DNA of 39,197 bases from Candidatus Aenigmatarchaeota archaeon (GCA_016198605.1 JACQIG010000080.1:1-39197), one strand, 5' to 3'; shown: positions 2,601 to 19,500, counted from the stretch's first letter. Program-made: numbers and translations. Notes: generated by a model not told the origin, from the letters alone.

Positions 2601-5600
2601 CACGCACGCTCCTGTCGCACCAACACTTGTCGCCAATGCCATCCTTGTCATAGTCCTCCTGCAGCGGGTTCTGCACAGAGGGGCAGTTGTCCACCTCGTC
2701 AAACACGCCATCGCAGTCCTTGTCGCCAGCGCAGATGAACTTTGCCGGGTTCACAACCGTGATGGTAGTGAAATCAGAGACAGGGCCGTTGCCTGCCACG
2801 TCATCCACGGTAAGCTTCACCCTGTATATCCCTTCCACATAATAGCCGGTGTCAAGGGTTGGGCTCTTGGTCACCAGGTCAACGTCATTGTCAGGTATGC
2901 CGTCAAGATCGGTGTCCCTTGTTATGTCTGTATCCCAGGTGTAGCTTGCGATGCCGTAATTGTCCGTGGACCACTGGGCGCTGAATTGCACTGGCTCCCT
3001 GACAAGGACATTCTGTGGTATGCCTGCAAATGCGTGTGGCGCTTCCGTATCGTCTTCCACAACGACCTGTACCAGCATCGTATCGGTGTCTGCGTTCCCG
3101 GCAGCGTCGCGGACTGTAAGCATCACTGTGTATGTGCCCGGGATATCGTAGCCCTTGGTGCTGTTGTACACACCTGTGAGTTTTTCTGAGGACGCGTTGC
3201 CTATGTGTGCGTCCCACTCATAGCTGACTATGTGGTCATTATCAAAAGATTCGCTCCCGTCAAAGAACACAGGATTGTTCACCCCCGCCCTCGCCATCTG
3301 GTCAGGGCCCGCAGCCGCCGTAGGCATCACGTTATCTGCTACTGTGAGCGGCTTGGAGGCATTGTTATTGAAGTAGCTCTTCTCCTGGAACTCATTGAAT
3401 GGCGATATTATGACGGTTATCTGGTGGGCGCCTGTTGTGGCATTCCATGTGACACTGACAGGGCCGGCTGAAAGGCCTGTCAGGTTGATCTCGTCGAAGC
3501 CTATCGTATCGTTACCGTCCCTGAATTCCACCTCGGCATCGATGGCATTGCCCTTGCCTATGTTGCTGATCAAGGCAGTTATCAGGACAGGATCCCCATG
3601 GTTCGGGCTGGCGGGCGAGAATGATATGTCCGGTTCGGTTACAGCCAGGTCAGGCAGCAGCTCAACGAAGAAAGCCGTCGCAGCAGACCTATTTGCCAGT
3701 CCCTGGCTGCTGGCATTTATCTTGGTCAAGTTTACCACTGCAGTAACATTGACGGAATAGACGTCCTCCAGGGACGTATTGGTGTAATTGTTGGCGTATA
3801 TGCCATCGCTCTCATTATAGTCGCCATGCTTGCCGTCATCATATAGAGTTATGTTTTCAAATGGCGTGGTGCCGTTCAGTGTGAAATTGGAGAACATGCT
3901 TATATCTGCGGTGACATTAGCCCCGGCCAGCGCTGTCCCGTTGTACTTGACCAGGGCGAATATAGTCACATTGTCTCCAGGCTCGTATGAGCTGTTGTCC
4001 GTGCCCGCAGAAACGAATAGCAGCGTCTGGTATGTTGCCATGGCGGAATATGCCGCCCCTTCAGTGCAGTTGACAGCGGTGGCATTGGAGATTACCATTG
4101 CCCAGTTGCCCGCTTCAGGTGACGCAATCACGTAAGTGACAGAATCATTGGCTCCCGTATAATTGATTGCCATGCCGTCAGCATCAGCAGGACCCACAAT
4201 GGACAGGTCAGGCCTTATCAGCCTCATGCTCAGGTTGTTCACGCACTCATCATAGTCAACTATCGTATCATTCCAGAAGGCCTGCACCTGGCTGTACTGC
4301 AGCTTGAAATTGGCGTTCATGCTGAGGCCGTCTATTGTGATATTGTGCTCGCCCCTTGTGCTCGCATTGGTGATGAGCCCTTCAAAGGGGCCGGCAAGCT
4401 GGTATGCCGTCCTGTTGAGCGTATCATTTATGTTCGCCAAGGACTCAGACGTGACAAGCAGCTGGCCATCTGGTCCAAGCAAGCCCTGGGCTGCGGAGGG
4501 GCATTGCCCGTCGTCCTCCAGCAGGGACCGCACGCAACTGACAGTCACGTCATCCTTGGCAAGCCACCAATGGTAGCTGCTGAGGCCCTTGACCTCTTTC
4601 TGCTGGACATTGTCAAGGCTGGAGCTTATCGTGCTGACAAGAAGGTCGCCTTCCCATATGAATGGCGATGTTAAAGTCACGTCTATGATCGGTATGGTTG
4701 CATGGGCGTGTATCAGCGTCAGAGGAAGGGCGAAGCTGCCTATCTTGGGCCCTACGCCCGCTATCGTATTATACTGGACCCTGTTGTTGAGGAAGTCATC
4801 CCCGCCTGGCCATGAGTACAGGGCCCATTCAGGGGCGGGATCCTTGCCGTTGAAATTGAGGTTCTTCAGGAATGTTGAGTCGGGCTCCATCTGCTTGATG
4901 GCGTCCCCAAGTATTATGTCAAGGAACGCCGTGGCCAGGTTGCCGAGCAGGTTTCCCACAACAGGCACCTGGGAGGCCAGGGAATTGATCACCGCCTTTG
5001 CCACCAGCGGGCCGTATTTCAGCAGGTCGCTGCCGTGCAGCGGGGCTCCTATGTCAATCTCCTTCCTCACGTCATTCCTGTAGCCGTAAGTGTCATAGTA
5101 ATGCGCCACCACGCCGCCCATGCCAGACCCCACAAGATCAACCTTGTCCACTCCTGTTTTCTGCTTTATCTCGTCTATCTGCTGGCCCACGGCCTTGGCG
5201 GAGGCCCTTATGTCCTGGTTGGCGAGCTTGAGGTTGATCACGTTGCTGCTCAGCCTCAGGTTTATCTTCAGCTCAGGGTAGCCGATAAGGCCCTCTCCAT
5301 CTCCCCCCTGTTTGGGAACTGCACCTGTGCTGTTCTGCGGATAATGGGAACACACAGAAGGGACGCCGCTCCCGGAATTTTGACCGGATTCTCCTGGGCA
5401 GAGCGCCTTAAAGCAATTGAGCCGCGGAACATTAAATCTGCTGTCTCTCTTTATTTTGTCCCCGCTTTTCTTGATTGCATCACGAATTTCCTGCGCTGTC
5501 ATGTCATTATCAAATGATTTTAATACTGCTGCACAGGCAGAAACATGGGGTGTTGCCATGGAAGTGCCCCTGGCACGGATAAAGTTCGTGCCCACCTTGA

Positions 5601-8600
5601 ATTCCTCATCATGGCACTCAAGGGTGTTTGAAAAGGTCTTTTTCTTTGCGATGAAACACAGATTGCCGTCATTGTTAACGTTAGGCGAGAATGCCGACAC
5701 TATCTCCTCAAAATTATTCAAGCCGTCAGGATTTCCTGATTCATCACCTCCGGGAGCAAGGATTTCAAGTGTCTTATCCCTGTTGGTATAGCCTGTTATC
5801 GCATCCTCCTTGTCCGTCGCCCCCACCGCTATGACATTCGGATTGCATGCAGGGGTCTCCACTGGTGGGGCTTTCCCAAATTTTCTTGCATTCCCGGCAG
5901 CTGCAACCAGGACCATGTCATACTGCTTATATGCACGCTCAAGCGCCTCTTCCACAGCCGCGTCATCCTCGCATTTGTTGCCTTCCGCTCTATCAAGCGG
6001 CTGGCCTATGCTCATGGAGATGACATTGATGTTGAACTGGTCCTTATGTCCTATGCACCAGTCAATGGCCGCCGCAAATGCAGCATCATCGCCGCCGGTG
6101 GGGTCATCTTTCTTTGATGCCGTCCCCCCAATGAATATTTTTACAGCGGCTATTTTTGCGCCCGGCGCTATGCCCCTGTAAACCGCATCGGTTGACGCTA
6201 TTATTCCTGCGACATGCGTTCCATGCCCCATCTCATCAAGCGGGTCAGCATCAGAGCCTACGCAATTGCCCATGCTATCCAATGCTGGGCACAGGTCTAT
6301 CCCCCCCACAACCTTGGGGCAAGTGCCCGACAAAAACTGGCCTTGGGTGCACCCGCCAAGGGCAGGGTGGGTGTAGTCAACCCCTGTGTCTATCACGCAA
6401 ACGGTCTGGCCTGACCCGGAACTGACGGATTCCAAAAAGCCCGCGTCAGGCGGGGGTATTTTTCTTGAATCAACAAGGGACAGGGTTTTTCTGCCCGGCC
6501 TGTCGATCTCCTCAACATCCGGATTGGCCAGCAGGCTTGCTAGGGCCTCTCTAGAGGCATATCCAGCAAAGCCGTTGATATTTTCATACCTATACGTAAG
6601 CCTGAAGCTCTCGGGCGGAAGCGAACCAAGCACCTTCTCCTGCAGCCTGCGTATCTCGCTCCTTGATGCCTCCAAATCGCCTTTGAATTCAGGCGAGGTA
6701 TAATAGTCATCCTTAAGGGAGACTGTCACTGCTATCTCGTCTGAAATTCCATCAAGATCTTTGAGGGTTATTTGCCTGGGGTTGGGGGCCCCATTGTCCA
6801 ATGCGGCCTCTGTGGACAAGGCAGACGGCTCCTCCTCTGGAGCCTGAATGGCCGAATCAGTGATATCCCCTTCGTCGTCCTTTGAGGCGCTGCCCTGGCC
6901 GTCACCACCTCCCCCTGCATCAGTCGGGTCATTGACCCTGAATGAGGGCAGTATTATGCTGGCCTTGAGATCACCCTCTATGACGCCTGACTTGCCTGCT
7001 ATTTTAGTGTCAATGACCTTGATCTCGCGCGGCGTGGTGGTCAGCGGCGGGTCCAGGTGCAGGATGATGTCCGACAGGTAAAGCGTGCCTTTCAGCTTTG
7101 CCGTGTTGTCCGAGAAGTCAGGCTTTATGTCCCTGACTATGAGATCAAACTTGGTTGAGGCTGATATGCCGGCCTTGTTGTAGCTTATGGTCTTGGAAAA
7201 GACAGTCGCCCTCCCTGGTATCTTTATCACACCTGTTTCCACCAGCGCCTGTATGGCAGGCTTCACCTTCTCCGGCAGCGGCACTGGGATTGAGATGTCC
7301 GCGATCTTGAATTCTTTCTTCAGCGGTATGTCAAGGCTGAACTTGTAATTGTCAAGCATCTGCTTCCAGAGCGTCTCAAAGAAGTTGTCGGAATCCACCA
7401 GCTCGAATATCTGGTCAATCTGCTCGTCCTTGAGGTAGACGTCTATCTGGTCAAGCGTGTTGATGAAATTGTTTATCACGGTCTGCAGGCCTGCCTGCTC
7501 CCTCGTCTTGTAGGATATGAGCACAAGCGTGTCCCTGAGGTCATTGAGGCTCCTCCTGACCTTGCTCTTCGCGTCCACCGCGCTGAATGTAGTGCTGTTG
7601 GCTAGGGCCCTCAGCTCCTTTATGTCCCTGTTGAGCGTTCTCGCCTGGTCAAGGACAAGGTAGATGTATGCAGCTGTCTCAAACTTTGGGTCCTTAAGCG
7701 GCAGAGTGAAGCCTACCTCAAGGTCAACAGGCTTCCTGAGGTCCACGGTGTAGACATTGTAGTCCGCGGCCTTTAAGGCCTCCTCTATCTTCTCCATCTC
7801 CTTGGGGCTCCTGAGGTAGTCGTGGATGAGCAGGACAGGGTTCCTCACGATAGTGATGGTCTTTGTGACACCCTTGGACCATGTGCCCTTGTCGTCGAGC
7901 GCCCTGAAGGTGACCGTCTGCATACCTGGGGAGTTGAATGTATACATGACAGTGGAGCCGTTGATTTCATTGCCCCCAATTATCCATTGGTTTGTCTGGA
8001 TGTAGCCATCAGTGTCAAAACCGTAGCCGTTGAACTCCACTGGCTCGCCTGTCACGGATACTATATCGCCATTCTCGTCAGCTTTCCCGTGTATGAACCT
8101 CACGAAGGCCGTGGGCGGCTTGTTGACAATAATGGTGTCGATTGAATTGGCTCCCAGTGGTGACCACAGGCCGCTCTTAGCCTTCACATTGATGCTTATG
8201 TGATGCGGATTGGCAGGAGGGAGTGTGGTGTTGAACGAAGGCTGGGAGCCTATCCTTCCCAGCTTATGGGAGCGCCACCAGTGGCCTACGATCTCATCAA
8301 GGGGGTCCCCGGGTTCCCCGTGGCCAGTGAAGTTTATGTCCTCGCCCACGGGGGCAAGGCCCATGGGTATTATCCTGTCTATTATGCCTTCGGGGGGCAT
8401 GGCATTGAATGCAGCATACAGTATATTGTCCACGGGGCCTGATGTCTCATTAAAACCGTCCATCCACGCTATGTATTGTCCGGCTTCAACAACGCCGTCG
8501 TCATTCGTGTCCCTGTATACGGTAGGGACAGTGCAGCCATTGCAGTTAACAGAGATGGCAGCGGAGAATCTGGTGTTATTGTCAGGCGCTTTGACATCGT

Positions 8601-10932
8601 GTTTAGTTATATTCTTGATACCCTCGCTTTCATTTATTATGTCGCTTCCTGTTTTTGTGGCGTTCCATGGCTCCGTATAGAACGTTATCGCGAACAGCTC
8701 GCCGGTGTCATAATTGATTGACAGGTTGACATGCGTGTTATTGGATTTAAGCGAATAGTTGTCCAGCTGCGGACTACCTGAAGTTATATATGTGTTGGGC
8801 AGGCCGGTGCCCTGGCCCATTGTATAGGTGGCTATGAGCTTGTTTTCGTCACCGTTGACAACGCTTCCGCCATTGCCTGTCTGGGTTCTGGACCACGACC
8901 TCTGGGGGGCGCCCTTGATTACCAGCTCGTAGCTTATAGTCACCCAGCCTTTCCTCCAGAGCCCGCGGTTGCAATAATGGACATTTACGTTGAAGGCGTT
9001 GGGGGTAAACAGCGCGACATTAACAGAATTATCTCCCTGGGTATCCCTTGAGAGCTCCTTGTAAGAGACTATCTCATAGGGGACGGGGGGCTGGTATTGG
9101 AGGGACTCATCCCTGCATTTCCTGGACAGGGTGCCGCCCCTCACAAATTTTTGGGATACCACGACAGTCTTGGTGTCATTAAACAATTCCCTGCCCAGGG
9201 CGGTTATCTCATAGGCGAAGCCCTGCGGTGGGCTCTGCGTGCCGGCCGCTGTTATGGCGTAACTGAATGGGTGGTTTATGGCCTCAGCGGCCTTCTTGCT
9301 GGCGTGCAGCTCAAATTCAGGCTCGCTGACTATCCACGCATAGAACTCCTGGCTTTTGTCCGTGATGAATATGTCGCTTCCAGGGTTTCCGTAATACGTG
9401 TTCCCGCCAAAGGTGATTGACATGTTGCTTATGCCGCTTATATTGGCATTGCACCCACTCCTGACGTTCACTATGAACTTGTCATAATCCATGTCATTGA
9501 CTATGCCAAACCCCTCAAGGATGCACGTGCCTGGGAGAGGGGGCAGGAACGACTGTTCGTCAACTGTGTCCGCTATGACCTTGTAGGTGAACGAATGGTT
9601 GATGCATGTGTGATTCTCTATGTGCTGGTTGGGTGCGCAAACAAGCCCCGTGCATATCCCTGCCGTGCAGACCTCTGCCGGCAAACAGTCATCATTTGTT
9701 GCGCAGGTAACTGGCATGAACGGGACCAAGGGCAGGAAATCGCCGCCATTGGCTATGTTGCCATTGTTATCATAGGGGATTTCTGTGTCCCCCAGGCCGT
9801 CGCTGTCCGTGTCGCTGCCGTTGTAATTGCTCCAGAAGTTGCCGCCAAGGAAGGGGCCACCCACAATGTTGGTGCCTGCCTGCTTTGGGATGTTCCAGGT
9901 GCTGGCGCTGACATTATAGGCTGTATTCATCGTATTATTGAAGAAGTTATTGAATATGGTATTGTTATTTGATTCTGAGATTGCAATGCCGAAATCATTG
10001 CTGAATATTGAGTTGTTATTGATGTTATTTAAAGATGAGTTGCTGACTTGAATGCCAGCAAAGTTAAATGATAGTGAATTGGAATGTACCAGATTATTGG
10101 AGGATGACGAATCCAGTATTATACCTATAAAACCCCCGCGTGCAATATTGCTTGCTATGGTGTTTGAACTGGAAGAAAGCAGATAGATGGGTGCTATCAT
10201 GTCCTGAATTATGTTTGAATTGACTGTATTGCCTGATGATGAGATGATAAATACCCCCGCATTGGCGCTTATGTTGCTATTGCTGTTATTAATAATATTT
10301 CCGCTAATTACGCCATTCGCAGACGAATTCAGTATAGCCCCAAAATAATTATTGTCAAACGTGTTGTTAGCTGTGTAGCTTGACGTCACCTGATAATAAT
10401 CGATCCCGGTGTTAAACATTTTTATTGTGCAGTTCCTGACGGTGACGTTTGATTTCCCCTGCGCTGATATGCCAAAACCAGTCCCATTGCCGGTTATAGC
10501 GTGGCCGCCGCAGTCAAGGGCAACGTCATTGGCTGTTACGTTTATGCAGTCGCCATCAGCCGTTATGTTGCTGGTCAGGTAGAAAGTGCCGTTCTTATCC
10601 AAGTCGGCGCAAAAAAGGGAGATGGTAAAATCGCACGCATCACCCACGCCGTCGCCGTCCGTGTCCACCTGGCTGGGATTGAATACCGTAGGACAATTAT
10701 CAAAACTGTCGTCAAGCCCGTCACAGTCCTGGTCCCCAGGACACAGCAAGGTTTCTGATGACCCATATGATTCCTCAATGACAACGGGCGCAGCCAGGGG
10801 TTCTGCATCGCCTGATGGGCCAGTCTGGACAATGGCCCGCTGGCCTGTTATGGAAGGGGAAAGGGCCATCAGGAATGCTGCGACCGAAAGGACAGAAACT
10901 AAGACTATTGTTACGCCTGCCACCCCAATCAT
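1..10932 (-). CDS. Giant secreted multidomain surface protein with an embedded I9-propeptide/S8 subtilisin module. It is 3'-partial: the C-terminus lies beyond the left window edge, and at least 3644 codons are present here.
   Basis: The minus-strand frame with codon low ends = 1 mod 3 is open from position 1 up to an in-frame stop at 11029-11031. The supplied ORF track omits it because no stop falls inside the window. The first ATG is at 10932 and reads [25 protein letters not shown], a hydrophobic signal or anchor. An alternative GTG at 10953 would add an Arg-containing n-region (VWINTR). The frame was verified at the start, at the S8 Asp codon (6388-6390) and at position 1. Plus-strand shadow ORFs keep a constant frame offset across the region, consistent with one continuous sense frame. 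Confidence 0.85.
   Translation of the reverse strand, partial: [3644 protein letters not shown]
29..115 (-). repeat. In-frame 21-bp tandem repeat: three perfect copies plus two truncated or decayed 12-bp copies, encoding WNITNTS units.
   Basis: gacgtattagtgatgttccat is identical at 29-49, 50-70 and 71-91. gtgatgttccat follows at 92-103 and gtgttgttccca at 104-115. The minus-strand translation reads ..[36 protein letters not shown]. Confidence 0.95.
2760..3340 (-). other. Two PKD-like beta-sandwich domains. A TSP3 Asp-rich repeat block lies immediately C-terminal, at ~2630-2745.
   Basis: Translations: ..[40 protein letters not shown].. and ..[36 protein letters not shown]... These are followed by [37 protein letters not shown], checked codon by codon over 2620-2760. 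Confidence 0.75.
3340..3660 (-). other. CARDB-like domain.
   Basis: Translation: [87 protein letters not shown]. This is the typical CARDB pattern: DL.v, G..v.i...v.N.G, and a terminal NN. Confidence 0.75.
4610..5290 (-). other. Alpha/beta-hydrolase (lipase/PGAP1-like) fold with a non-canonical nucleophile elbow.
   Basis: Codon-by-codon translation of 5101-5160 gives [20 protein letters not shown]. Canonical lipases read LVGHSMGG here. Downstream elements ..[10 protein letters not shown].. and ..[12 protein letters not shown].. (4621-4680) resemble the strand-loop motifs that carry the acid residue in this fold. Confidence 0.5.
5440..6420 (-). other. Peptidase S8 (subtilisin-like) catalytic domain with a complete triad.
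   Basis: Asp motif [18 protein letters not shown] (Asp codon 6388-6390). His motif [15 protein letters not shown] (His codon 6223-6225). Ser motif [18 protein letters not shown] (Ser codon 5560-5562). [12 protein letters not shown] lies between them. Confidence 0.92.
6440..6790 (-). other. Subtilase pro-domain (inhibitor I9-like).
   Basis: Translation ..[83 protein letters not shown].. lies directly N-terminal of the S8 Asp motif. The Y.Y..ingFag.....l..L...p.Ve.Ie pattern is typical of I9. Confidence 0.6.
7860..8150 (-). other. PKD-like domain.
   Basis: Translation: ..[89 protein letters not shown]. Confidence 0.65.
9720..10750 (-). other. TSP3 Asp-rich repeats followed by the first parallel beta-helix (PbH1/NosD-like) module.
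   Basis: Translation: [38 protein letters not shown], then ..[42 protein letters not shown].. and Asn/Ser-rich helical turns. It ends in the cap motif [35 protein letters not shown] (~9780-9900). Confidence 0.8.
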
Positions 10933-10977
10933 CCTTGTATTGATCCAAACCACCTTAAGCCCTACTTGGCAGGAAGA

Positions 10978-10985
10978 TTTATATA
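10978..10985 (-). promoter_or_regulatory. TATA-box-like element upstream of gene C.
   Basis: The minus strand reads TATATAAA. The candidate GTG start at 10953 is 25 nt downstream of the 3' end of the box (possibly leaderless). The ATG at 10932 is 46 nt downstream, with AAGGTGG (10950-10956) in between. Confidence 0.4.
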
Positions 10986-11033
10986 CTGAAGAAGCATTGC
11001 GATTGCCGAACCATGGATATATCCTATATTAAA

Positions 11034-14000
11034 TTAAAGCTCCCTGTATACAGGCTTCTCCCTATTGCTTCCTCCTGGCTGGGCAGGGCAGCTAGCGGCT
11101 TGCGCATCCGCAACCCATGTGTCTCCCTGGAACATGCCGTTTGCATTGCCCCCGAAAAGGACTGCATTGCCCCTGATCGTGTCATATGCCAGTCCCGCCT
11201 CTGCCCTACCTGAAGGGGCTGCTGTTGCATAGGCCAGCTGCCAGCTGGTGCCGTTCCAGGCCCATGTCTGGTTGGCATAATTGCCGCTGCTGTCCCCGCC
11301 GAAGAGGAGCATTTTGCACGCCTCCTGGCTGAAGGCCATGGCAGGCCAGCGAAGAGCAGGCGGACCTACTGTTATCTTCTGGGCCCAGGTGCTGCCATTC
11401 CATGCCCATGTGTCTCCAAGCTGGCCTGATGCATTGCGACCTCCGTATAATATGACCTCATTCCTAACAGGATCGTATACCATGGCATGCTGGAATCTTG
11501 CCGGCGGGCTTACAGAAGGGAACCTTTGGGTCCATGTCACTCCATTCCAGGCCCATGTCTGGTCCAGCAGCCCATTTTCAGCCGAGCCCCCGAAGAGGAC
11601 GGCCTCTTCCCTGGCTGGATCATATGCCATGGTTGCATGGAACATCTGCGGGGGGCTTGCCGCTGGGAATTTCTGCGTCCAGGCAGAGCCGTCCCACGTC
11701 CACGTGTCGCTGTAGCGGTTATCGTTTACGCCGCCGCCGAACATTACCACTTCCCCGCGCGCTGAGTCGTATACCATCGCATGCGTATCCCTTCTTGGTG
11801 GCTTGGCAGCCAGTGATTTTTGTGCCCAGCCTGTCCCGTTGAATACCCATGTATCATCCGATTCCCTTATCGTATCCCCGAGGAAGCCGCCGAACAGGAC
11901 AACCTCGCTCCTCAATCCGTCATAGGCCATTCCAAACCTGCTCCTTGGCGGAGGGCTTGGGGACGGCGATAGCTGCGTCCAGTTTACCCGGCCCGTCACT
12001 ACGTTAGGGTCAGTCTCGCCTGGATCCGTGGCGCCATTGCCATTTGCGTCCTCTGTGCCGTCAGGCACGCCATCGCTGTCGGTGTCTGTATTCAGGGGAT
12101 TCGTGGTTGAAGCAGGATCAGAGTCAGGCACGAAGATGGCAAGATTGGTCCCTGTGCCTTCCGGCGCCACCAGCCCCTTCTCCGTCCCGTCAAGTATGCC
12201 GTCCCCATCCGTGTCAGGGTTGGCAGGGTCCGTCTCCCCCGGGTCCACTATGCCGTTTGCATTCAGGTCCTCTGTTCCAGTGTTCCCGTCAGTCAGGCCG
12301 TCGTCATCGCAGTCATCGTCAAGGGGGCAGGGGTCCAGGGCGCCCACAAGGCCGTCGCCGTCGCTGTCCGCCACCAAAGACATGAAGTATGTCCAGTTCC
12401 AGTACTGCCCCGGGTCCGTGTGGTGGTTTATCCCACCGCCTTGCCCAGGGTCATTTGGGTCTGGAACCTGGTCGTGGCCTATTATGCCGCCTGAAGCCAG
12501 GGGGTCAGCCGGCGCTATGCCTGCAGGATGGACCAATGGAACGCTGTATTTCTGTGCAAGCCACGCGGCAACGCTGGCCGAAGCCATGTACATCTCTTCC
12601 GTGTATGCGTCAGGGTCGCTTACAAAGCCCTCGTGCTCTATGCCTATGGAATGGAGGTTGTAATTGAAATTGCCTGCATGGTAGGCCACGTCTTCCCCGC
12701 CAACCATTGCAGTGATTCCGCCTGCCCCGCTTATAACGTAATGCGCGCTTCTGCCCGCGGCCGGGTCTTGGAAGGTGTTGATCGCGCTTTGGTAGCTGCT
12801 TTCTGTCGTATGGATTATTATGTAATTGATGTCATAGCTGCTTTCCCTGTCGCTGTCCTGGTAGCCGTTTGTATGCGCAGGTGTCCAGATGGAGCCGGGA
12901 TAAATAGTCCCATTGAAGCCAAAGCGTTTCCATGAGTCATAAAACAAGAAAACGCCTCCTACAGATGGCTGGTCTCCTCCCCACTGGACGCCCGCATAAG
13001 GCGTATATGTAAACTGGCCGGCAACAGCCTTGTTGGCAGGTGTGACCATAACACCATCGAGTGTCATCTTCGCGACGCCCACCTGCCACCCGGAAACCGT
13101 GGATCCCGTATTTGTAAGCTGGTCATGATAAACGCGGAACCTTTCCGCCGCGCACGTGAGCTGCTGGCGCGCGGTCGTAGGGGAAATGCATCCCATAAGG
13201 AATCCCATTTGCGAATCAGACGGCCTGGTAGTCCTTGTCACCCCTGATATTTCCTTCTGGAGTGTGGCAAGTATCACCTTAGGGTTGATGAGATACTGGT
13301 CCGCTGCCTGCTTGATTACAACGGCAGCGTCAAATATAACGCCATCCACGTCCGGGACAGGCCGGCTGAAATAACTGTTTTGGGCTGACAAGAAGGCCCT
13401 TATGTCATTTGAGGACATGGAATCATAGTCCTCCAGCCCAGAGTCAGTTATGAATTCCGTATTATACGCTGATGTCACGTTGCCGGAGGAGTTGGTATTG
13501 AAATACAGCCGGCCTGAAAAGTTGCTCGCGCCAGCGCCGTTGAACGCCCTCATGTTCCAGCGGTAGTCAAATCCCTGCTGCAGGTAGCCCGCGGGCAGGG
13601 TGAAAGAGGTCCCGGCTATCTGGCCGTAATCAACCTCGCTGTCAAACACTAGGTTGCCTGGCCCGAAAGGCGACTGGCTTATGTATATTGCATAATAGCT
13701 GGCGCTTGGCGCTGCGCTCCAAGTGAATGTCGGCGTGGTGGTGGTTATTACCTCTCCTGGTGGGCCTGAAACTGTCCCAGGGGATATTGGCGTGGGCGGC
13801 GACTGCATTGTGCTTACTGAAAAATACCATGGATCAGTGAATCCGCTTGCGCCTGCGCCATTGAAGGAGCGCATGTTCCAGCGGTAGCTTTCGCCGTCCA
13901 GCAGGTAGCCCCCAGGGAGGGTGAAAGAATTGCTGTAAATCGGGCCGTAATCAAAGTCGCTGTCAAACACCAGCACACCAGTAGCTATGTTCCTAACGTA

Positions 14001-15581
14001 AAGGCCGTGGTAATCCGCATTGGAATCGCTGTTCCATTGGAACGTGGGGGTTGTCGCATTGATTATAGAACTGTTGGAAGGAGACAGATGAACAGGCGCG
14101 TCTGGCGGCAGGAGAGGCGCCTGGGGCGTTGCGCTGACCTCGTTTGAGAATGCGCCCTCGCCTATGGAATTCAGCGCTGTCACCTTGTAATAATATGTCA
14201 CGCCATTTGCAACCAGCGTGTTGTTGAACGTGGTGAAGGCTGATGATATTGTGGCATAGTATGACTCGCCCCCCAGGGATGTCCCGCGGTATATGTTGTA
14301 TTGCGCCACTGCCGAGCCGCCGTCAGAGGCCGGCGGGCTCCACCCAAGGAAAACGAAGCCGTTCCCCACATCAATAACAATGAGATTCTGCGGTGGCGTA
14401 GGTGTCGTAGCCGGCATGGGCACTGTCGCGCTCGCCTCGTTTGAGAACCCGCTGTCCCCGGCTGAATTGACAGCCTTAACCTTGTAATAATATGTCTGGC
14501 CAGCCACGAGGTTGGCCGTGTTGTTGAACGTCGTGCCTGGTGTCGCCGTGGTGAAATAAAGCGTCTCGCCTCCGGGGGACGTGCCCCTGAATATCTTGTA
14601 ATTGGTCACGGGAGAGCCGCCGTCGCTTGAGGGCGGGTCCCATGCCAGGAGTATGTGGCCAGGCCCGGCATCAGGCACGCGCAGGTTGAGCGGCGGCGAC
14701 GGGACAGTTGCCGGGTTCTGCGTAGTGAAGCCCCACTTTGGCGACCACTCGCCATAAAATGAGGCGCTCCTGCCGTGGACGGTCCAGTAGTAGGTTGTCC
14801 CGGCGCTTAATATACCCGGGGCAGGCTGGTATGAGGTAGACGATGTTTCCGCATTTATGGCGCAATTAGAGCATGTACTCACCGTAGGGTCTGTCGGCAG
14901 GGCGCTGGAGCTTGTGGAGACCATTATCCTGTATGACGTAGCGCCGCTGGCTGATGACCAGCTAAAGGTTGGTGTCATGGAAACGCCTGCAGCCCCGTTG
15001 GAGGGGGACGAAAGCGCAGGCGCAGGAAGTAGGTATTCCACAAAATCCTCGGCCACCCAGCCTGTTATGCCGCCAAAGCTGGCTTTCCAGAAATGGTAGA
15101 AGCCTCCCCCGCCGGTCGGCACGCCGTAAAAAGGCCCGCTCACCACAGTCCCTAGTGTGCCCTCAGGGACGCTTCCTATGTCCTGAAGGCCGGGAGGGTC
15201 GCTCCTGACGTTCAAGGGAGTGCCGTCTATGTAGGATACGAGGAGCCTGTCAGTTAGGCTGAACTTGGTGGAAGGCGTTATGGATACCTTAAGCAGGAAG
15301 TCCTCGGCTGACCAGCCCTCCAGGCCGTCAGACCACCTGACCTTATACCTGTTGAAGCTGTTGCAGAAAGCAGGGCCGCCAATCACTGTCCCGCGGCTCC
15401 CTGGAGCCTTGGAGCCTGTCTGCGCATCGCAGGCGTTTGGCCCGCGCACCACCAGGTTGCTGCCGCCCGTATTGAACACCTCTACGGTATCTCCTGCAGT
15501 GACGTGCGTGGCGTAGGCAAGCGTGACAAACATGAGAAGCAAAACTGCAGACCCTCCCAAGATCGCGGCTGTTTTTTTCAT
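11034..15581 (-). CDS. Secreted multidomain peptidoglycan hydrolase-like protein. Domain order: signal peptide, SH3b x2, FN3-type domains, orphan domain, Amidase_2 (N-acetylmuramoyl-L-alanine amidase), TSP3 repeats, Kelch propeller.
   Basis: The ORF-track frame is 11034..15659. I place the start at ATG 15579-15581 because MKKTAAILGGSAVLLLMFVTLAYA-THV is a classic Sec signal. A G7 Shine-Dalgarno-like tract (15587-15593) lies 5 nt upstream. The track start at 15657-15659 is a TTG lying inside the promoter palindrome. Confidence 0.9.
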   Translation of the reverse strand: MKKTAAILGGSAVLLLMFVTLAYATHVTAGDTVEVFNTGGSNLVVRGPNACDAQTGSKAPGSRGTVIGGPAFCNSFNRYKVRWSDGLEGWSAEDFLLKVSITPSTKFSLTDRLLVSYIDGTPLNVRSDPPGLQDIGSVPEGTLGTVVSGPFYGVPTGGGGFYHFWKASFGGITGWVAEDFVEYLLPAPALSSPSNGAAGVSMTPTFSWSSASGATSYRIMVSTSSSALPTDPTVSTCSNCAINAETSSTSYQPAPGILSAGTTYYWTVHGRSASFYGEWSPKWGFTTQNPATVPSPPLNLRVPDAGPGHILLAWDPPSSDGGSPVTNYKIFRGTSPGGETLYFTTATPGTTFNNTANLVAGQTYYYKVKAVNSAGDSGFSNEASATVPMPATTPTPPQNLIVIDVGNGFVFLGWSPPASDGGSAVAQYNIYRGTSLGGESYYATISSAFTTFNNTLVANGVTYYYKVTALNSIGEGAFSNEVSATPQAPLLPPDAPVHLSPSNSSIINATTPTFQWNSDSNADYHGLYVRNIATGVLVFDSDFDYGPIYSNSFTLPGGYLLDGESYRWNMRSFNGAGASGFTDPWYFSVSTMQSPPTPISPGTVSGPPGEVITTTTPTFTWSAAPSASYYAIYISQSPFGPGNLVFDSEVDYGQIAGTSFTLPAGYLQQGFDYRWNMRAFNGAGASNFSGRLYFNTNSSGNVTSAYNTEFITDSGLEDYDSMSSNDIRAFLSAQNSYFSRPVPDVDGVIFDAAVVIKQAADQYLINPKVILATLQKEISGVTRTTRPSDSQMGFLMGCISPTTARQQLTCAAERFRVYHDQLTNTGSTVSGWQVGVAKMTLDGVMVTPANKAVAGQFTYTPYAGVQWGGDQPSVGGVFLFYDSWKRFGFNGTIYPGSIWTPAHTNGYQDSDRESSYDINYIIIHTTESSYQSAINTFQDPAAGRSAHYVISGAGGITAMVGGEDVAYHAGNFNYNLHSIGIEHEGFVSDPDAYTEEMYMASASVAAWLAQKYSVPLVHPAGIAPADPLASGGIIGHDQVPDPNDPGQGGGINHHTDPGQYWNWTYFMSLVADSDGDGLVGALDPCPLDDDCDDDGLTDGNTGTEDLNANGIVDPGETDPANPDTDGDGILDGTEKGLVAPEGTGTNLAIFVPDSDPASTTNPLNTDTDSDGVPDGTEDANGNGATDPGETDPNVVTGRVNWTQLSPSPSPPPRSRFGMAYDGLRSEVVLFGGFLGDTIRESDDTWVFNGTGWAQKSLAAKPPRRDTHAMVYDSARGEVVMFGGGVNDNRYSDTWTWDGSAWTQKFPAASPPQMFHATMAYDPAREEAVLFGGSAENGLLDQTWAWNGVTWTQRFPSVSPPARFQHAMVYDPVRNEVILYGGRNASGQLGDTWAWNGSTWAQKITVGPPALRWPAMAFSQEACKMLLFGGDSSGNYANQTWAWNGTSWQLAYATAAPSGRAEAGLAYDTIRGNAVLFGGNANGMFQGDTWVADAQAASCPAQPGGSNREKPVYREL
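11041..11055. repeat. 15-nt element tccctgtatacaggc with a perfect 12-bp palindrome, CCTGTATACAGG, at 11043-11054. It overlaps the last codons of gene B.
   Basis: Read directly from the sequence. The minus strand encodes ..EK-P-V-Y-R-E-L-stop. An identical 15-mer lies at 16519-16533. Confidence 0.95.
11110..11990 (-). other. Kelch-type beta-propeller (about six blades).
   Basis: Six repeats of the form P.PR..HAMVYD..R.EVVLFGG.......L.DTWAWNG..W.Q. Examples: ..PPRRDTHAMVYDSARGEVVMFGGGVNDNRYSDTWTWDGSAWTQ.. and ..PPARFQHAMVYDPVRNEVILYGGRNASGQLGDTWAWNGSTWAQ... Confidence 0.85.
12000..12390 (-). other. Thrombospondin type-3-like calcium-binding Asp-rich repeats.
   Basis: Translation: DSDGDGLVGALDPCPLDDDCDDDGLTDGNTGTEDLNANGIVDPGETDPANPDTDGDGILDGTE...NPLNTDTDSDGVPDGTEDANGNGATDPGETDPN. 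Confidence 0.8.
12395..12840 (-). other. Amidase_2 / PGRP-type N-acetylmuramoyl-L-alanine amidase domain.
   Basis: Translation: YDINYIIIHTTESSYQSAINTFQDPAAGRSAHYVISGAGGITAMVGGEDVAYHAGNFNYNLHSIGIEHEGF..YTEEMYMASASVAAWLAQKYSVPL...GIIGHDQV...HTDPGQYW. This matches the family hallmarks I.iH.t, ahy.i...G.i, AyHAg..N..siGIE..G, GH and DPG. The frame was checked at 12393-12404 and 12831-12836. Confidence 0.85.
14125..14700 (-). other. Two fibronectin type III domains.
   Basis: Translations: PSPPLNLRVPDAGPGHILLAWDPPSSDGGSPVTNYKIFRGTSPGGE..GQTYYYKVKAVNSAGDSGFSNEASA and PTPPQNLIVIDVGNGFVFLGWSPPASDGGSAVAQYNIYRGTSLGGE..GVTYYYKVTALNSIGEGAFSNEVSA. Confidence 0.85.
15030..15500 (-). other. Two bacterial SH3 (SH3b)-like domains.
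   Basis: Translations: GDTVEVFNTGGSNLVVRGPNA..GSRGTVIGGP...YKVRWSDGLEGWSAEDFL and ..GTPLNVRSDPPGLQDIGSVPEGTLGTVVSGP....FWKASFGGITGWVAEDFV. These fit the l.vRs.p, G.v and gWv....l pattern. Confidence 0.65.
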
Positions 15582-15657
15582 ATTTACCCCCCCAACAGGC
15601 GCATTTTCATGAATGTCGTAGCAAAGAGCCAGATATTCCACGGGTTTAACCTGAATC

Positions 15658-15682
15658 AACTTTAAAGTTTATAAATCCCCGT
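15658..15682. promoter_or_regulatory. Shared divergent promoter/operator region between gene B and the regulator. It has a 12-bp palindrome, AACTTTAAAGTT, abutting a palindromic TATA box, TTTATAAA.
   Basis: AACTTTAAAGTT (15658-15669) and TTTATAAA (15668-15675) are each their own reverse complement. Purine-rich BRE-like flanks lie on both sides. The regulator ATGs at 15691 and 15697 lie 16 and 22 nt downstream of the box, suggesting a leaderless mRNA. For gene B the same box would give a 5'UTR of about 60 nt ending in the G7 SD-like tract. Confidence 0.5.
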
Positions 15683-15690
15683 TTTACAGG

Positions 15691-16491
15691 ATGGATATGA
15701 AGCATGATGCGCTGTTCCCGGTAAGCAGCTCCACAAAGGAGCAGATAATAGCAGTCCTGTCAGGCGAGTGGCCCCTGTCGGCGAGGAAGGTTTACACAAG
15801 GCTCCTGAAAAAACACAACATTTCCTTGACCTACCAGGCCGTGCATAAGGCCCTCAGGGAGCTTACCGAAAGCAGCATCTTGGAAAGGGAGGGCACAGGC
15901 TACAGGCTTGCGGAAGCATGGATCGCGCATCTGGGAAATTTCAGCCAGAAGATGAAGGATGAGTATGACAGCGTACATGTTGCCAGGGAGACCAGGGCCC
16001 TGCACAGGTTTGTCTTCACGAAGCATTCGGACTTTGTCAGATTCCACCTGGACCTTGCCCGGAAGCTCCTCGAATCAGGCAAGCAGGTGAAGATGACATT
16101 CCATATGAGGCACGTGATATACCCCTTCCTTTTGCTTGCCGTCGAGGAACACGGGAAGTTCAAGGAGCTGCTGGGGAAATCAGAATGGGTAATCCTCTCA
16201 AAAAACGCGACAGCCATGGACGAGTGGTGCGCAAAGTACTGGAGGAGGCTGGGAGTGAAAGTCACGCTAGGTGCTGATGTCGCAACCAACTCCATCCTCA
16301 TCGTCACCAATGACTACATAACCGATGCGCGCCTGCCAAAAAAGGCCCTTGGGGCGTGGGACAAGCTATTTGAATCGGTGAACGTCAAGAATTTTGACGC
16401 TAATAGGATGAATGAAATAATACTTGAGCAGAAATTTGAGACAGTTGCCACCGTCTTCAGGGACAGGAAAATAGCCGACATGCTGGCCTGA
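15691..16491 (+). CDS. Winged-helix-turn-helix transcriptional regulator (MarR/TrmB-like N-terminus) with an uncharacterised C-terminal domain of about 190 aa.
   Basis: Complete ORF, translated line by line. The N-terminus reads KEQIIAVLSGEWPLSARKVYTRLLKKHNISLTYQAVHKALRELTESSILEREGTGYRLAEAW, which fits helix, helix, recognition helix and wing. The true start may be the second ATG at 15697 (MKHDALF) if the mRNA is leaderless. Confidence 0.8.
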   Translation: MDMKHDALFPVSSSTKEQIIAVLSGEWPLSARKVYTRLLKKHNISLTYQAVHKALRELTESSILEREGTGYRLAEAWIAHLGNFSQKMKDEYDSVHVARETRALHRFVFTKHSDFVRFHLDLARKLLESGKQVKMTFHMRHVIYPFLLLAVEEHGKFKELLGKSEWVILSKNATAMDEWCAKYWRRLGVKVTLGADVATNSILIVTNDYITDARLPKKALGAWDKLFESVNVKNFDANRMNEIILEQKFETVATVFRDRKIADMLA

Positions 16492-16494
16492 TGG

Positions 16495-16499
16495 TTTTT
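16495..16499 (+). terminator. Oligo-T tract just after the regulator stop codon; a possible archaeal-type terminator.
   Basis: The sequence tga-tgg-TTTTT-gg follows the stop codon at 16489-16491. Confidence 0.3.
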
Positions 16500-16511
16500 G
16501 GATGGGCGCAA

Positions 16512-19500
16512 TCATAAATCCCTGTATACAGGCGGCTCCGTCCCGCCGCCCCCGGGCGGGAGCACGCTTATGGCGACTTCTTCCCGGTCTGACAGGCTTC
16601 CGTCCGTGGCTGCAAACGTTACCGTGTAAGTGCCCGCGCTATTCGCGGCCCATTCAAAATAGCCTGTGCCGGCGTCAAAATAATGCGGTTCAGGCAGGAC
16701 AGAAGCCGCATTGGTGCTGAACAGCATGGCGTCGCCGTCGGGATCAGAGGCTGAAAGCTGTATTATGAGTGTCCCGCCATCAGGCACTGTCCTGTTCCCT
16801 ATTGCTTCCATCACCGGGGGATTGTTTGGCTGGCAGGCCACTATGGCCTTGCCACCCATGTTCATCTTCTCGGCTATGTCCTTCGCCCTTGTAGTATCTA
16901 CGGATATGAGGGATTCGGCCTCTGCTATAGCCTGGCTTACTGTGGTGGAATTGGACAATGGCGTCAGGTTTACCTGCGTCTGAAGGAACAGCTTGCGCGA
17001 GGCCAGGTTAAGCCACAATGCAAGCAGCTGCCTGTTTGCCTGCTGCAGCATGCTGGGCTTCTTCACGTCGAGTATCATGCACATTGCCTTGAAGCTGGTG
17101 GTGTTGTCAAAGAAGTCAGTCATGTTGTGTATCCTGGCCAGGTAGGATTCCATGGAGGACCTGTTCTCGTTATTGAAGTTGCCATTGCATGGCTGCGACC
17201 AGTACCCTGCGGTGCGAGGGTCGCATACGCCTATGCCGCTGGTATTGTCAAATATTGTGATAGTCTCCTCGTCTGACAGGAGCCCATCCGTCACATTGAA
17301 CAGCACCATGTACGTGCTGGAATCATTAGCCTGCCTTGTCCACTGGAAGAAGCCTGTGGCGGGATCAAAGAGGAATGGCCCCTGCAGCACGGAGCCTGCA
17401 TTTGTCCCGAATGCAAGGGTGTCATTGTCAGGGTCGCTTGCTGACAGCATTATGGCGAGGGTCTCATTCCTTGCCACGGACTTGTTGCCTACCGCATCCA
17501 GCACGGGCGGGCGGTTCACGCGCAGGTCAATGACCGTTATTGCTATCATCTCGCTGTCGTTGGCCAGGCCGTCCGAGACGCTGAAGGTGACGCTGTATAT
17601 GCCTGAATCATTCAGTGTCGGAATCCACTCAAACAGGCCTGTTGCTGCATTAAAAGCAAATGCACTCGGGAGCACGGAGCCGGCATCCGTCGTGAATATT
17701 AATGTGTCATTGTCCGGGTCAGCTGCAGACAGCTGTATGGCAAGGGACTCATTCTCCCCGACAGTCCTGTTGCCCACCGGATCCAATACAGGTGGCCTGT
17801 TTGTGGCGTTTATTTGCATATCCCTTACGGTTATGGATATGGTTTCGTTATCCGCAAGCTGCCCGTCGGATACATTGAATGTCACGCTGTATATGCCTGA
17901 ATCATTAAACGTGGGCGTCCACTCAAACAAGCCAGTTGCTGCATTGAAGGCGAACTGACTGGGCAGTATGGAGCCCGCATTTGTCCCGAATGCGAGAGTG
18001 TCGTTGTCCGGGTCCGCCGCCATGAGCTGGATGAGCAATGTCTCATTCTCATCAACTGTCCTGTTGCCTATTGCATCAAGGACAGGAGGCCTGTTTAGCG
18101 GGACATCAACCACCGTTATGGTCACAATCTCGGCATCGGCCAGCTGGCCATCGAATGCGATGAACGTGATATTGTATTCTCCGGCGTCATCAAATGTCGG
18201 GATCCAGGAGAACAGTCCTGCTGTCTCATTGAAGGCGAACGGGCCGGGCAGGACAAGGCCCGCATCGGTGTTGAATATTATGGTGTCATTGTCCGGGTCG
18301 CTTGCAGTGAGCTGTATGGCAATGCCCTCATTCTCGTTTACCGTCCTGTCCCCCACCGGGTCCAGCACCGGGGGCCTGTTTACGTCAAGTATGGTGATGG
18401 AAACAGCCTGCGAGTCAGCCAATATGCCGTCCCCGACTGTAACCAAAACAGAAAGGAATCCTGCATCATCAAATCCCGTCTGGAACAGGAAGGCGCTGCC
18501 GTTCTGGACGAACACCGTGTCGTTGATGAAGACGGTGAGGTTATTGTCATCGTTGGCGGGGGCATTCTGGTTGTCAGGGTCGCTGGCAACGGCCAGGATC
18601 ACTGCTGTCTCTGTCTCATTGACCGTTACATCAGGCATGAAGTCCAATACAGGCGGCCTGTTGGTGTTCAGGACCTCTATTGTTATTGCCTCGCTGCCAG
18701 TCTGGTTGCCGTTCGTGACATTGAACAGGACCGAATAATTGCCTGAATCGTCAAACGCCGGCGTCCAGCTGAACAGCCCTGTGGCCGCGTTGAAGGAGGG
18801 CTGGCTTGGCAGCACGGACAACGCGTCTGTTCCGAACAGCAGTGGCGCGCCGGCGGGGTCAATTGCGGTGAGCTGTATGTCCAGCGTGGCGTTCTCTGCC
18901 GTAGCCCTGTCACCCACAGGATTCAGTATCAGCTGGCCTGGGACTGCCACGAGGACCGTTATGTTCCTTGAGACGTTTGCAAGGCTGTCTGATACGGTCA
19001 CCTGCACCTGGTATGTGCCTGGCTGCACGCTGTCATCCACGAACACGCTCCTGAAGCCTGAAGACAGATCTCCTGACAGGTTGAAGGTCCCGGATGCAAA
19101 CGCGAATGTGAGGTTGCCCGCCCTCATGAACTCCTCCAGCGGGATGACCGAAACAGTGAATGAGTCACTGTCGGAGGCGCCGAACACGTCTGTCACGCTC
19201 ACGTTTATCCCGCTGGTGCCTATCTGGCCCGGGACGGCAGAGCAGGCCAGCACGTGGCCCGATGCAACAGAGCAGTTCAAGACGCCCGTATTGCCCTGTC
19301 CTGCCACGGCATAATCAAGCTCCGCGATGTCCTGCTCATTGTCCCTTGTGAACTCCAGCAGGTCCATCAGCAGCGTGCCGTTTTCAAATATCGCCTCATC
19401 GGGGATGCCTGCCATCTCTGGCGGCGTGTTGAACAGTATCAGGGTAAAGTTATATGAATCCTCCATCTTCGTCCCATCCCTGTTGACCAGGGTGGCATTG

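Follow-up and report, generated by a model that had tools for sequence, protein, structure and literature searches.

A stretch of 39,197 nucleotides assigned to Candidatus Aenigmatarchaeota (GCA_016198605.1, JACQIG010000080.1:1-39197; hereafter the window, with positions counted from its first letter) carries on its minus strand the gene for a large multidomain peptidoglycan hydrolase, MBI4020452.1. We consider it likely that this protein is a Sec-secreted, probably bifunctional murein hydrolase of a DPANN archaeon, binned with the Aenigmarchaeota, and that it acts on bacterial walls. The domain content of the protein, its intact catalytic residues, the archaeal setting of the gene and a gene pair conserved on a second archaeal contig carry this reading. 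Because the producer would have no murein of its own, we infer that bacterial cell walls are the substrate. The protein is already listed in GenBank under the automatic name N-acetylmuramoyl-L-alanine amidase, from Candidatus Aenigmarchaeota archaeon. A first-pass annotation of the window had described a murein amidase with SH3b targeting domains; a second probable catalytic domain just upstream of the amidase, here called Module A, had been missed.

The open reading frame (ORF) spans 11034..15659 on the minus strand (1,541 codons), with its stop codon at 11034-11036. The true start is the ATG at 15581, which yields 1,515 aa, as in MBI4020452.1. Residue numbers follow the 1,541-codon reading, and subtracting 26 converts them to GenBank numbering. 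From the N-terminus to the C-terminus, the gene contains the following features.

11034..15581, minus: whole hydrolase gene, predicted 1,515-aa secreted multidomain peptidoglycan hydrolase MBI4020452.1 (ORF list and exact NCBI protein match)
15510..15581, minus: Sec-type signal peptide, MKKTAAILGGSAVLLLMFVTLAYA followed by T (by inspection; cleavage predicted after AYA)
15015..15494, minus: two tandem SH3b (SH3_3-like) putative wall-binding domains (BLAST to the homologue P0045; AlphaFold (AF2) fold)
14733..14978, minus: immunoglobulin (Ig)-like domain, Rha78A_N-like (Pfam PF25788, E 4e-9)
14112..14699, minus: two fibronectin type III (fn3) domains (Pfam fn3, E 3.2e-22, two stretches; direct DNA repeat D3, 297-nt spacing)
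13500..14099, minus: two more Ig/fn3-like repeats of ~100 aa each (direct repeat D1: 129 nt, 77% identity, 321-nt spacing)
12912..13469, minus: Module A, unannotated lysozyme-like domain, probable glycan-strand hydrolase (residues 731-916, ~185 aa; AF2 fold)
12444..12836, minus: Amidase_2, zinc N-acetylmuramoyl-L-alanine amidase (Pfam PF01510, residues 942-1072)
12810-12812, 12636-12638, 12474-12476 and 12414-12416, minus: amidase codons H950, E1008, H1062 and D1082, respectively
12003..12350, minus: Asp-rich thrombospondin-type-3 (TSP3)-like, putatively Ca-binding repeats (NCBIfam CglD repeat region, E 6e-27; direct repeat D5)
11100..11912, minus: Kelch beta-propeller of about six blades (Pfam PF24681, E 2.5e-29, with Kelch_3 and Kelch_4)

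Catalytic and wall-binding domains

All six amidase motifs reported in the first-pass annotation (IIIHTTE, AHYVI, AYHAG, SIGIEHEG, GHDQV and DPG) are present in the ORF, and the coordinates it gave for the domain, 12395-12840, agree with the Pfam match at 12444-12836. The profile search that it had proposed placed the domain well above the Pfam threshold (90.2 bits versus a cut-off of 26; E 1.8e-25; profile positions 3-130 of 131). In a family alignment of 86 sequences, conservation is 100% at the zinc ligands (H950, H1062 and D1082) and at the catalytic E1008, 97% at H1080 and 95% at Y974; the loss of zinc-binding residues that had been named as a refuting result is not seen. D1082 lies just past the Pfam envelope, within a conserved block at 12366-12905. 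A single-sequence search of the PDB with the amidase returned nothing at E 0.001, and at E 10 only AmpD (PDB 1j3g) aligned meaningfully, with E1008 on E116, D1082 on D164, and HHTDPG on RKTDPG (K162, D164). The H-x-D motif (H1080, D1082) is one that we take to correspond to H147/D149 of pneumococcal LytA, and 15 PHROG endolysin/amidase families match the domain. Judged by these residues, the domain is an intact zinc amidase, neither decayed nor a binder of the peptidoglycan recognition protein (PGRP) type.

A phylogeny had been suggested as a check for acquisition from bacteria. In a neighbour-joining (NJ) tree, the hydrolase amidase pairs with P0021 (bootstrap 70%), within a 17-member clade that includes the homologue P0265, described below, and all three named archaeal sequences (Thermoplasmatota, Halocatena and Haladaptatus) and that contains no named bacterium. 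The grouping with archaea has a bootstrap of only 62%, lies among mostly unnamed sequences and is only suggestive of an archaeal-enriched Amidase_2 clade. At 62% identity, P0021 is the closest amidase relative; its C-terminal ...IPGFEIIIVICALVLVLFLRRKNRF resembles an archaeal PGF-CTERM/archaeosortase signal, a hint that P0021 may be archaeal too.

Module A has no match in Pfam, NCBIfam or PHROG, and the Pfam search remained empty even at E 10. Its AlphaFold model (pLDDT 84) gave as top Foldseek matches almost exclusively wall hydrolases with a lysozyme fold, among them the GH73 enzymes LytB, AtlE and SagB, g-type lysozymes, and MltC/E/F, the top three at a probability of 0.91-0.99 and TM ~0.4; the viral structural matches were SLT, GEWL and glucosaminidase proteins. 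Weak matches to SLT_4 / SLT (E 0.037-0.054) were obtained in a few relatives, not in the window's own domain. The family is large, comprising 2,654 representative clusters in a profile search of 1.84 billion representatives, and Module A is 60-73% identical to many metagenome proteins, some of them labelled Anaerolineales, Woesearchaeota or Planctomycetota. In all of 67 aligned members (23, and 44 more), the LQKE motif keeps its Glu, at about residue 803. Among 44 multidomain members, the partner domains were M23 (14), Amidase_3 (5), C39-like (C39_2; 5) and Amidase_2 (2), and half or more of the multidomain relatives carry one of these four. Given the lysozyme-like fold class, the invariant Glu and the partner domains, Module A is most likely a glycan-strand hydrolase. 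Since it lies beside Amidase_2, the protein is probably a bifunctional murein hydrolase, like staphylococcal Atl, and Module A is a candidate for a new peptidoglycan glycosidase family, present in both bacteria and archaea. Among the gene contexts inspected, those of P0033 and P0034 gave no taxonomic signal, and those of P0059 and P0075 yielded a mere hint, a MJ0711_N domain next to P0059.

The first-pass description of a Sec-secreted protein with two SH3b-like domains agrees with our analysis. By inspection, the N-terminus has the basic n-region, the ~18-residue hydrophobic core and the A-x-A site of a Sec-type signal peptide, and P0265 has an equivalent N-terminus. In BLAST, the SH3b region shares 34% identity (E 2e-8) with the SH3_3 pair of P0045. 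This protein, a member of the same amidase clade, combines Amidase_2 with 2x SH3_3, and its own SH3_3 match has E 8.7e-16. With the AlphaFold model of the region (pLDDT 69), Foldseek retrieved, at probability 1.00 and E values from 3e-6 to 1e-3, tandem SH3b domains of peptidoglycan hydrolases (YrvJ, a Trichomonas vaginalis NlpC/P60 protein and the phiSM101 endolysin). By homology and predicted fold, both SH3b domains are real, although they fall below the Pfam threshold. The reported fusion to FN3, TSP3 and Kelch was also recovered: fn3 and Kelch, like the Ig-like domain, pass Pfam thresholds, and the TSP3-like repeats are recognized through the CglD match. The repeats at 13500..14099 gave weak Ig_Rha78A_N and fn3 matches, and the Kelch part shows DNA repeats of ~145 nt or multiples of it (D2/D4/D7). 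A homologue search with the Kelch/TSP3 part found only bacterial-type double-propeller proteins.

In the mechanism that we propose, the signal peptide would direct export and the N-terminal SH3b pair would dock the protein on peptidoglycan, the ~500-residue Ig/fn3 stalk acting as a spacer between this binding end and the catalytic pair. Module A, with its predicted lysozyme-like fold and invariant Glu, would cut the glycan strand, and Amidase_2 would strip the stem peptide from N-acetylmuramic acid (MurNAc) via H950/H1062/D1082, E1008, H1080 and Y974. The TSP3-like Ca-binding repeats and the Kelch propeller would probably tether or orient the enzyme, on the surface of the producer or on another ligand. 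The enzyme might serve to breach the wall of a bacterial host or prey, to kill competitors, or to scavenge fragments of walls; the sequence does not choose among these.

Conserved gene pair and archaeal setting

The window is nearly filled by three very large minus-strand genes, of which the hydrolase is the middle one, and one small plus-strand gene.

15691/15697-16491, plus: small winged-helix-like gene, 264-266 aa (264 from 15697), HY367_03910 (100% identical to an NCBI protein from the Aenigmarchaeota metagenome-assembled genome (MAG))
15582..15696, no strand: divergent intergenic region, 115 bp, with a TATA-like element, a candidate operator and a G-run
open frame from 11028 off the window start, minus: first flanking giant, >3,644 aa, with NosD/beta-helix repeats, S8 subtilase and PKD domains
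16515 to the window end, 39197, minus: second flanking giant, >7,536 aa, with LamG, FG-GAP, CARDB, He_PIG and Big_9 domains
11037..11054, minus: C-terminal tail P-V-Y-R-E-L of the hydrolase, coded by the exact palindrome CCTGTATACAGG (11043-11054)

A collinear homologue, P0265 (1,790 aa; L023 10001-15373), is encoded on a second contig, JAIYHU010000003.1 (63.6 kb; assembly GCA_053536175.1), which also encodes an archaeal-type Sec61-beta. P0265 has the order signal peptide-SH3b-Ig-fn3-PA14-Module A-Amidase_2 and is 41% identical to the hydrolase over 968 aa, with 66% identity in Module A and 49% in Amidase_2. Directly upstream of P0265, in divergent orientation, lie two homologues of the small winged-helix-like gene (42% identity, E 3e-81, and 31%, E 5e-40). 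With the same divergent arrangement in both, the pairing of the hydrolase with its small neighbour is conserved between two genomes that differ widely in GC content (54% and 41%). Unlike the hydrolase, P0265 has PA14 in place of two Ig-like repeats and MopE-like Cys-rich repeats in place of TSP3 and Kelch; it lacks the PVYREL tail, has two regulator paralogues instead of one, and belongs to the genome with the lower GC content (41% versus 54%). P0265 is also nearly free of N-glycosylation sequons, with 1 N-X-S/T versus 22 expected and 20 occurrences of the reversed motif. This depletion suggests selection against N-glycosylation of a secreted enzyme in an N-glycosylating host.

The divergent region of the window contains the palindromic TATA-like element TTTATAAA (15668-15675), preceded by AAAG and located 25 nt upstream of the ATG of the small gene. 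No sigma-70-like site was found in 15582-15696, and across 10800-16700 such sites were at chance level. A G-run resembling a Shine-Dalgarno sequence lies upstream of the hydrolase ATG. Overlapping the TATA-like box is a candidate operator, TCAACTTTAAAGTTTA (15656-15671), which fits TCAAC-N6-GTTGA with one mismatch; between P0265 and its divergent neighbours, the same motif forms a palindrome without mismatch (L023 9937-9952), and ~0.003 such matches would be expected by chance in the 115-bp interval. The small protein has no Pfam or NCBIfam family. We regard it as a candidate dedicated regulator, which would probably control expression by binding at or beside the shared TATA.

A third member of the small-gene family, P0122, lies on a contig that encodes GGGP synthase, replication factor A and KaiC-type ATPases. 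In the window, both flanking giants (the first taken as 1-10932, the second as 16515-39197, minus strand) are about twofold enriched in N-X-S/T, with shuffle z of 7 and 13. The signal is directional (196 N-X-S/T versus 90 S/T-X-N, with 91 expected), is spread along the length of the proteins and shows a preference for N-X-T. Such enrichment is expected for N-glycosylated archaeal surface proteins, and the counts are consistent with heavy N-glycosylation of the flanking giants. As a general archaeal signature, N-X-S/T enrichment was dropped since Kelch repeats can mimic it; the directional test on the two giants was kept. The archaeal context noted in the first-pass annotation is accordingly borne out by the Aenigmarchaeota MAG label together with the P0265 gene pair, the small-gene family, the promoter region and the flanking sequons, and an archaeal genomic setting is supported by more than the bin label. 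On the contig's taxonomy, whose confirmation had also been proposed, the NCBI label and the archaeal signs stand, but the label derives from metagenome binning and the contig carries no marker gene.

The hydrolase is close to its neighbours in GC content at third codon positions (GC3; 0.648 versus 0.633-0.693) and in codon usage (deviation 0.083 versus 0.049-0.064, a small difference), and thus shows no sign of chimeric assembly or very recent transfer. Around it cluster giant surface proteins that resemble adhesins or proteases, a kind for which DPANN genomes are known. No tRNA genes were found in the window. The sole Rfam match, an L19-Flavobacteria leader at 2511-2543 (31.7 bits versus a cut-off of 31.5), lies inside the coding region of a giant gene and is almost certainly due to chance.

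Within the first giant, an S8 subtilase with the D-H-S motifs DTGVDY, HGTHVAG and GTSMATPH (~5136-7833, minus) appears to split an alpha/beta-hydrolase-like region in two by insertion. With GSGMGG in place of the usual GHSMGG at its nucleophile elbow, the lipase-like part may be inactive.

A PVYR[E/D]L tail ends both complete giant genes (11043-11054 and 16521-16532). The 12-nt palindrome CCTGTATACAGG is present at both gene ends, with 14/14 nt identical when the next two bases are counted, and matches the window twice versus 0.12 times expected. The tail was found in none of the 253 fetched homologues. Such a tail may serve as a C-terminal tag for sorting or anchoring, or its coding sequence may act as a site at the DNA or RNA level just before the stop codon.

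Alternative explanations

Several observations weigh against an archaeal murein hydrolase. The taxonomic label rests on metagenome binning, and no ribosomal, tRNA or other marker genes are present on the contig. The hydrolase itself is not enriched in N-X-S/T (z 0.2), and repeat motifs can mimic such enrichment, as in the Kelch homologues (mostly unnamed, the few named ones bacterial), where observed/expected reaches 1.97. Among the best homologues of the Kelch part, the few with names are bacterial (Planctomycetota, Baltobacteraceae and Frankiaceae; list identities 33-48%), which, together with the missing sequon enrichment, fits descent from bacteria; the hydrolase gene appears to be a mosaic largely of bacterial origin. 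Of the named relatives of Module A, two are bacterial and one is archaeal, and P0378 lies in a bacterial context (TonB-dependent receptor), so that Ig-like repeats and Module A occur in bacteria too. The structural matches of Module A are weak (E 0.015 or worse, TM 0.3-0.4), a profile search of PDB sequences with Module A was empty, and no sequence profile ties it to GH73 or GH23. Pfam SH3_3 (PF08239; cut-off 27 bits) is sub-threshold in both SH3b units (unit 2, 13.6-14.6 bits, E 0.039-0.08; unit 1, 10.9 bits, E 0.56), as is Pfam TSP3_bac on the Asp-rich repeats (E 0.06). Support for the amidase clade is only moderate (62% NJ bootstrap). Whole-protein scans of species-representative genomes and JGI metagenomes found only ~30%-identity amidase relatives, mostly from Verrucomicrobiota, and no homologous locus, which indicates a poorly sampled lineage.

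If the contig had been mis-binned and came from a murein-containing bacterium, for example of the Chloroflexota or Planctomycetota, the protein would be an autolysin or an interbacterial weapon. This account draws on the named best matches of Module A (including Anaerolineales and Planctomycetota) and of the Kelch part, on the lack of a phylogenetic marker gene and on the hydrolase's unremarkable sequon count. We nevertheless hold it to be quite improbable: the small-gene family occurs on two other contigs, both with archaeal markers (Sec61-beta on one, GGGP synthase and replication factor A on the other), and the hydrolase-regulator pair is kept on the Sec61-beta contig; the divergent region has a TATA-like box at archaeal distance and no sigma-70-like site; N-X-S/T enrichment in the flanking giants is directional, the reversed motif occurring about as often as expected; in the tree, the amidase groups with archaeal sequences; and synonymous-site composition is uniform over the contig. 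An archaeal protein could instead act on another substrate, either the pseudomurein of a methanogen host or a glycopeptide in the envelope of the producer or an archaeal host. Cultivated DPANN with known hosts attach to archaea, the gene lies between giant adhesin-like surface proteins, as expected of host-interaction loci, and the lysozyme-like fold class of Module A also includes chitinases. Amidase_2 chemistry is, however, specific for the MurNAc lactyl-L-Ala amide, which pseudomurein does not contain; the pseudomurein-binding module PMBR is absent, with SH3b in its place; and the fusion partners of Module A (M23, Amidase_3 and Amidase_2) are murein enzymes. Among archaeal hydrolase homologues, only 2 come from pseudomurein-making classes (Strock et al., PMC12352652). 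A substrate other than murein therefore seems unlikely.

The long Ig/fn3 stalk, the TSP3 repeats and the Kelch propeller form an adhesin-like architecture, and the neighbours are giant and adhesin-like as well. The domains might thus only recognize murein, as in an adhesin or sensor comparable to non-catalytic PGRPs, and keep the archaeon attached to a bacterium without cleaving its wall. In non-catalytic PGRPs, the zinc-binding Cys or Asp is typically missing, whereas here all zinc ligands and catalytic residues are kept (95-100% conserved in the family) and Module A retains its invariant Glu, which makes a purely binding role very unlikely. Least credible to us is the view that the gene is no cellular tool but serves lysis by a phage or provirus, as an endolysin, or travels as mobile-element cargo. 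The PHROG matches of the amidase domain would fit an endolysin, and plasmids and small contigs carry more than their share of archaeal hydrolases (Strock et al., PMC12352652). But no phage-like, viral or mobile-element genes were seen among the four genes of the window, Module A has no PHROG match, and an archaeal virus would have no murein to lyse. Endolysins are short, typically two-domain proteins encoded in a lysis cassette, unlike this protein, which at 1,515 aa includes a signal peptide, a stalk and a propeller. We therefore retain the murein hydrolase acting on bacterial walls as the preferred interpretation.

Relation to known wall hydrolases

Modular peptidoglycan hydrolases have been described in ~5% of archaeal genomes, prominently in Nanoarchaeota, Thermoplasmatota and Halobacteriota; 32% have signal peptides, and bactericidal activity was found for two haloarchaeal M23 enzymes (Strock et al. 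2025, PLoS Biol, PMC12352652). The S2 Table of that study includes a Sec-type LysM+Amidase_2 protein from Aenigmatarchaeota (MBS3052716.1); the present hydrolase is not among the three Aenigmatarchaeota entries listed from that table. To count as a member there, a protein needs one or more Pfam catalytic domains that cleave murein and one or more Pfam domains that bind the wall (PMC12352652). In the hydrolase, the catalytic domain passes Pfam, but the SH3b binding domains lie below its cut-off despite support from fold and homology, and a Pfam-threshold screen such as this one would consequently miss the protein. It otherwise resembles the described enzymes in having an archaeal producer without murein, a catalytic and a wall-binding domain (Amidase_2 and SH3_3 are both on the domain lists of PMC12352652), a Sec signal, a patchy spread and bacterial-type modules. 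It differs in its size of ~1,500 aa, its at least 12 domains, its second, lysozyme-like domain and its TSP3 + Kelch end, and it is known from sequence alone. A literature search on its accession or locus tag found nothing relevant.

Large extracellular proteins with murein-transglycosylase domains have been reported from Woesearchaeota and Pacearchaeota, for which bacterial hosts or prey were proposed (Castelle et al. 2021, PMC8204110; Vigneron et al. 2022, PMC9723730). Like these, the hydrolase is a very large, predicted extracellular DPANN protein with a domain of the lysozyme superfamily thought to bind or degrade bacterial walls, and both are read as tools for attachment or predation. Those proteins were recognized by SLT/GH23 models, whereas Module A reaches only E ~0.04-0.05 against SLT models, and in relatives only; the hydrolase also adds Amidase_2 and SH3b and comes from an Aenigmarchaeota bin. 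With Staphylococcus Atl (amidase plus GH73 glucosaminidase), it shares the combination of a stem amidase and a putative glycan hydrolase in one predicted secreted, wall-targeted protein, and the best structural matches of Module A are LytB, AtlE and SagB, LytB being pneumococcal. The Atl amidase also belongs to the Amidase_2 family, but the wall-binding repeats of Atl are not SH3_3. Unlike the producers of Atl, LytA and LytB, the producer here has no wall to remodel; domain order and the Ig/fn3, TSP3 and Kelch parts differ, and Module A is not GH73 by sequence.

The concept of archaeal wall hydrolases is thus already established, and the protein is a further, unusually elaborate example, less surprising than the first-pass annotation had assumed. 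Its architecture and size set it apart, as do Module A, which lacks any annotation, the Kelch/TSP3 end and the conserved pairing with a candidate regulator gene. To the catalogue of such enzymes it adds a likely bifunctional (glycan and peptide-stem) hydrolase, an unannotated lysozyme-like family, repeatedly found together with M23 and amidase domains, that may represent a new family of peptidoglycan glycosidases, and a conserved divergent candidate regulator, which suggests controlled deployment of a weapon. Module A, as a candidate new glycosidase family, and the conserved pairing of regulator and hydrolase offer the leads of most use; archaeal wall hydrolases are of interest as new antibacterial enzymes as well.

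More speculatively, and with considerable doubt, the regulator and hydrolase may constitute a lineage-conserved, regulated wall-breaching module of some DPANN, with Module A as an unrecognized murein glycosidase family accompanied by an archaeal-enriched Amidase_2, PVYR[E/D]L as a new mode of sorting or anchoring, and the Aenigmarchaeote living or preying on bacteria rather than archaea. For DPANN, Aenigmarchaeota included, a secreted enzyme that would act only on bacterial walls is a rare sequence-level clue to physical contact with bacteria.

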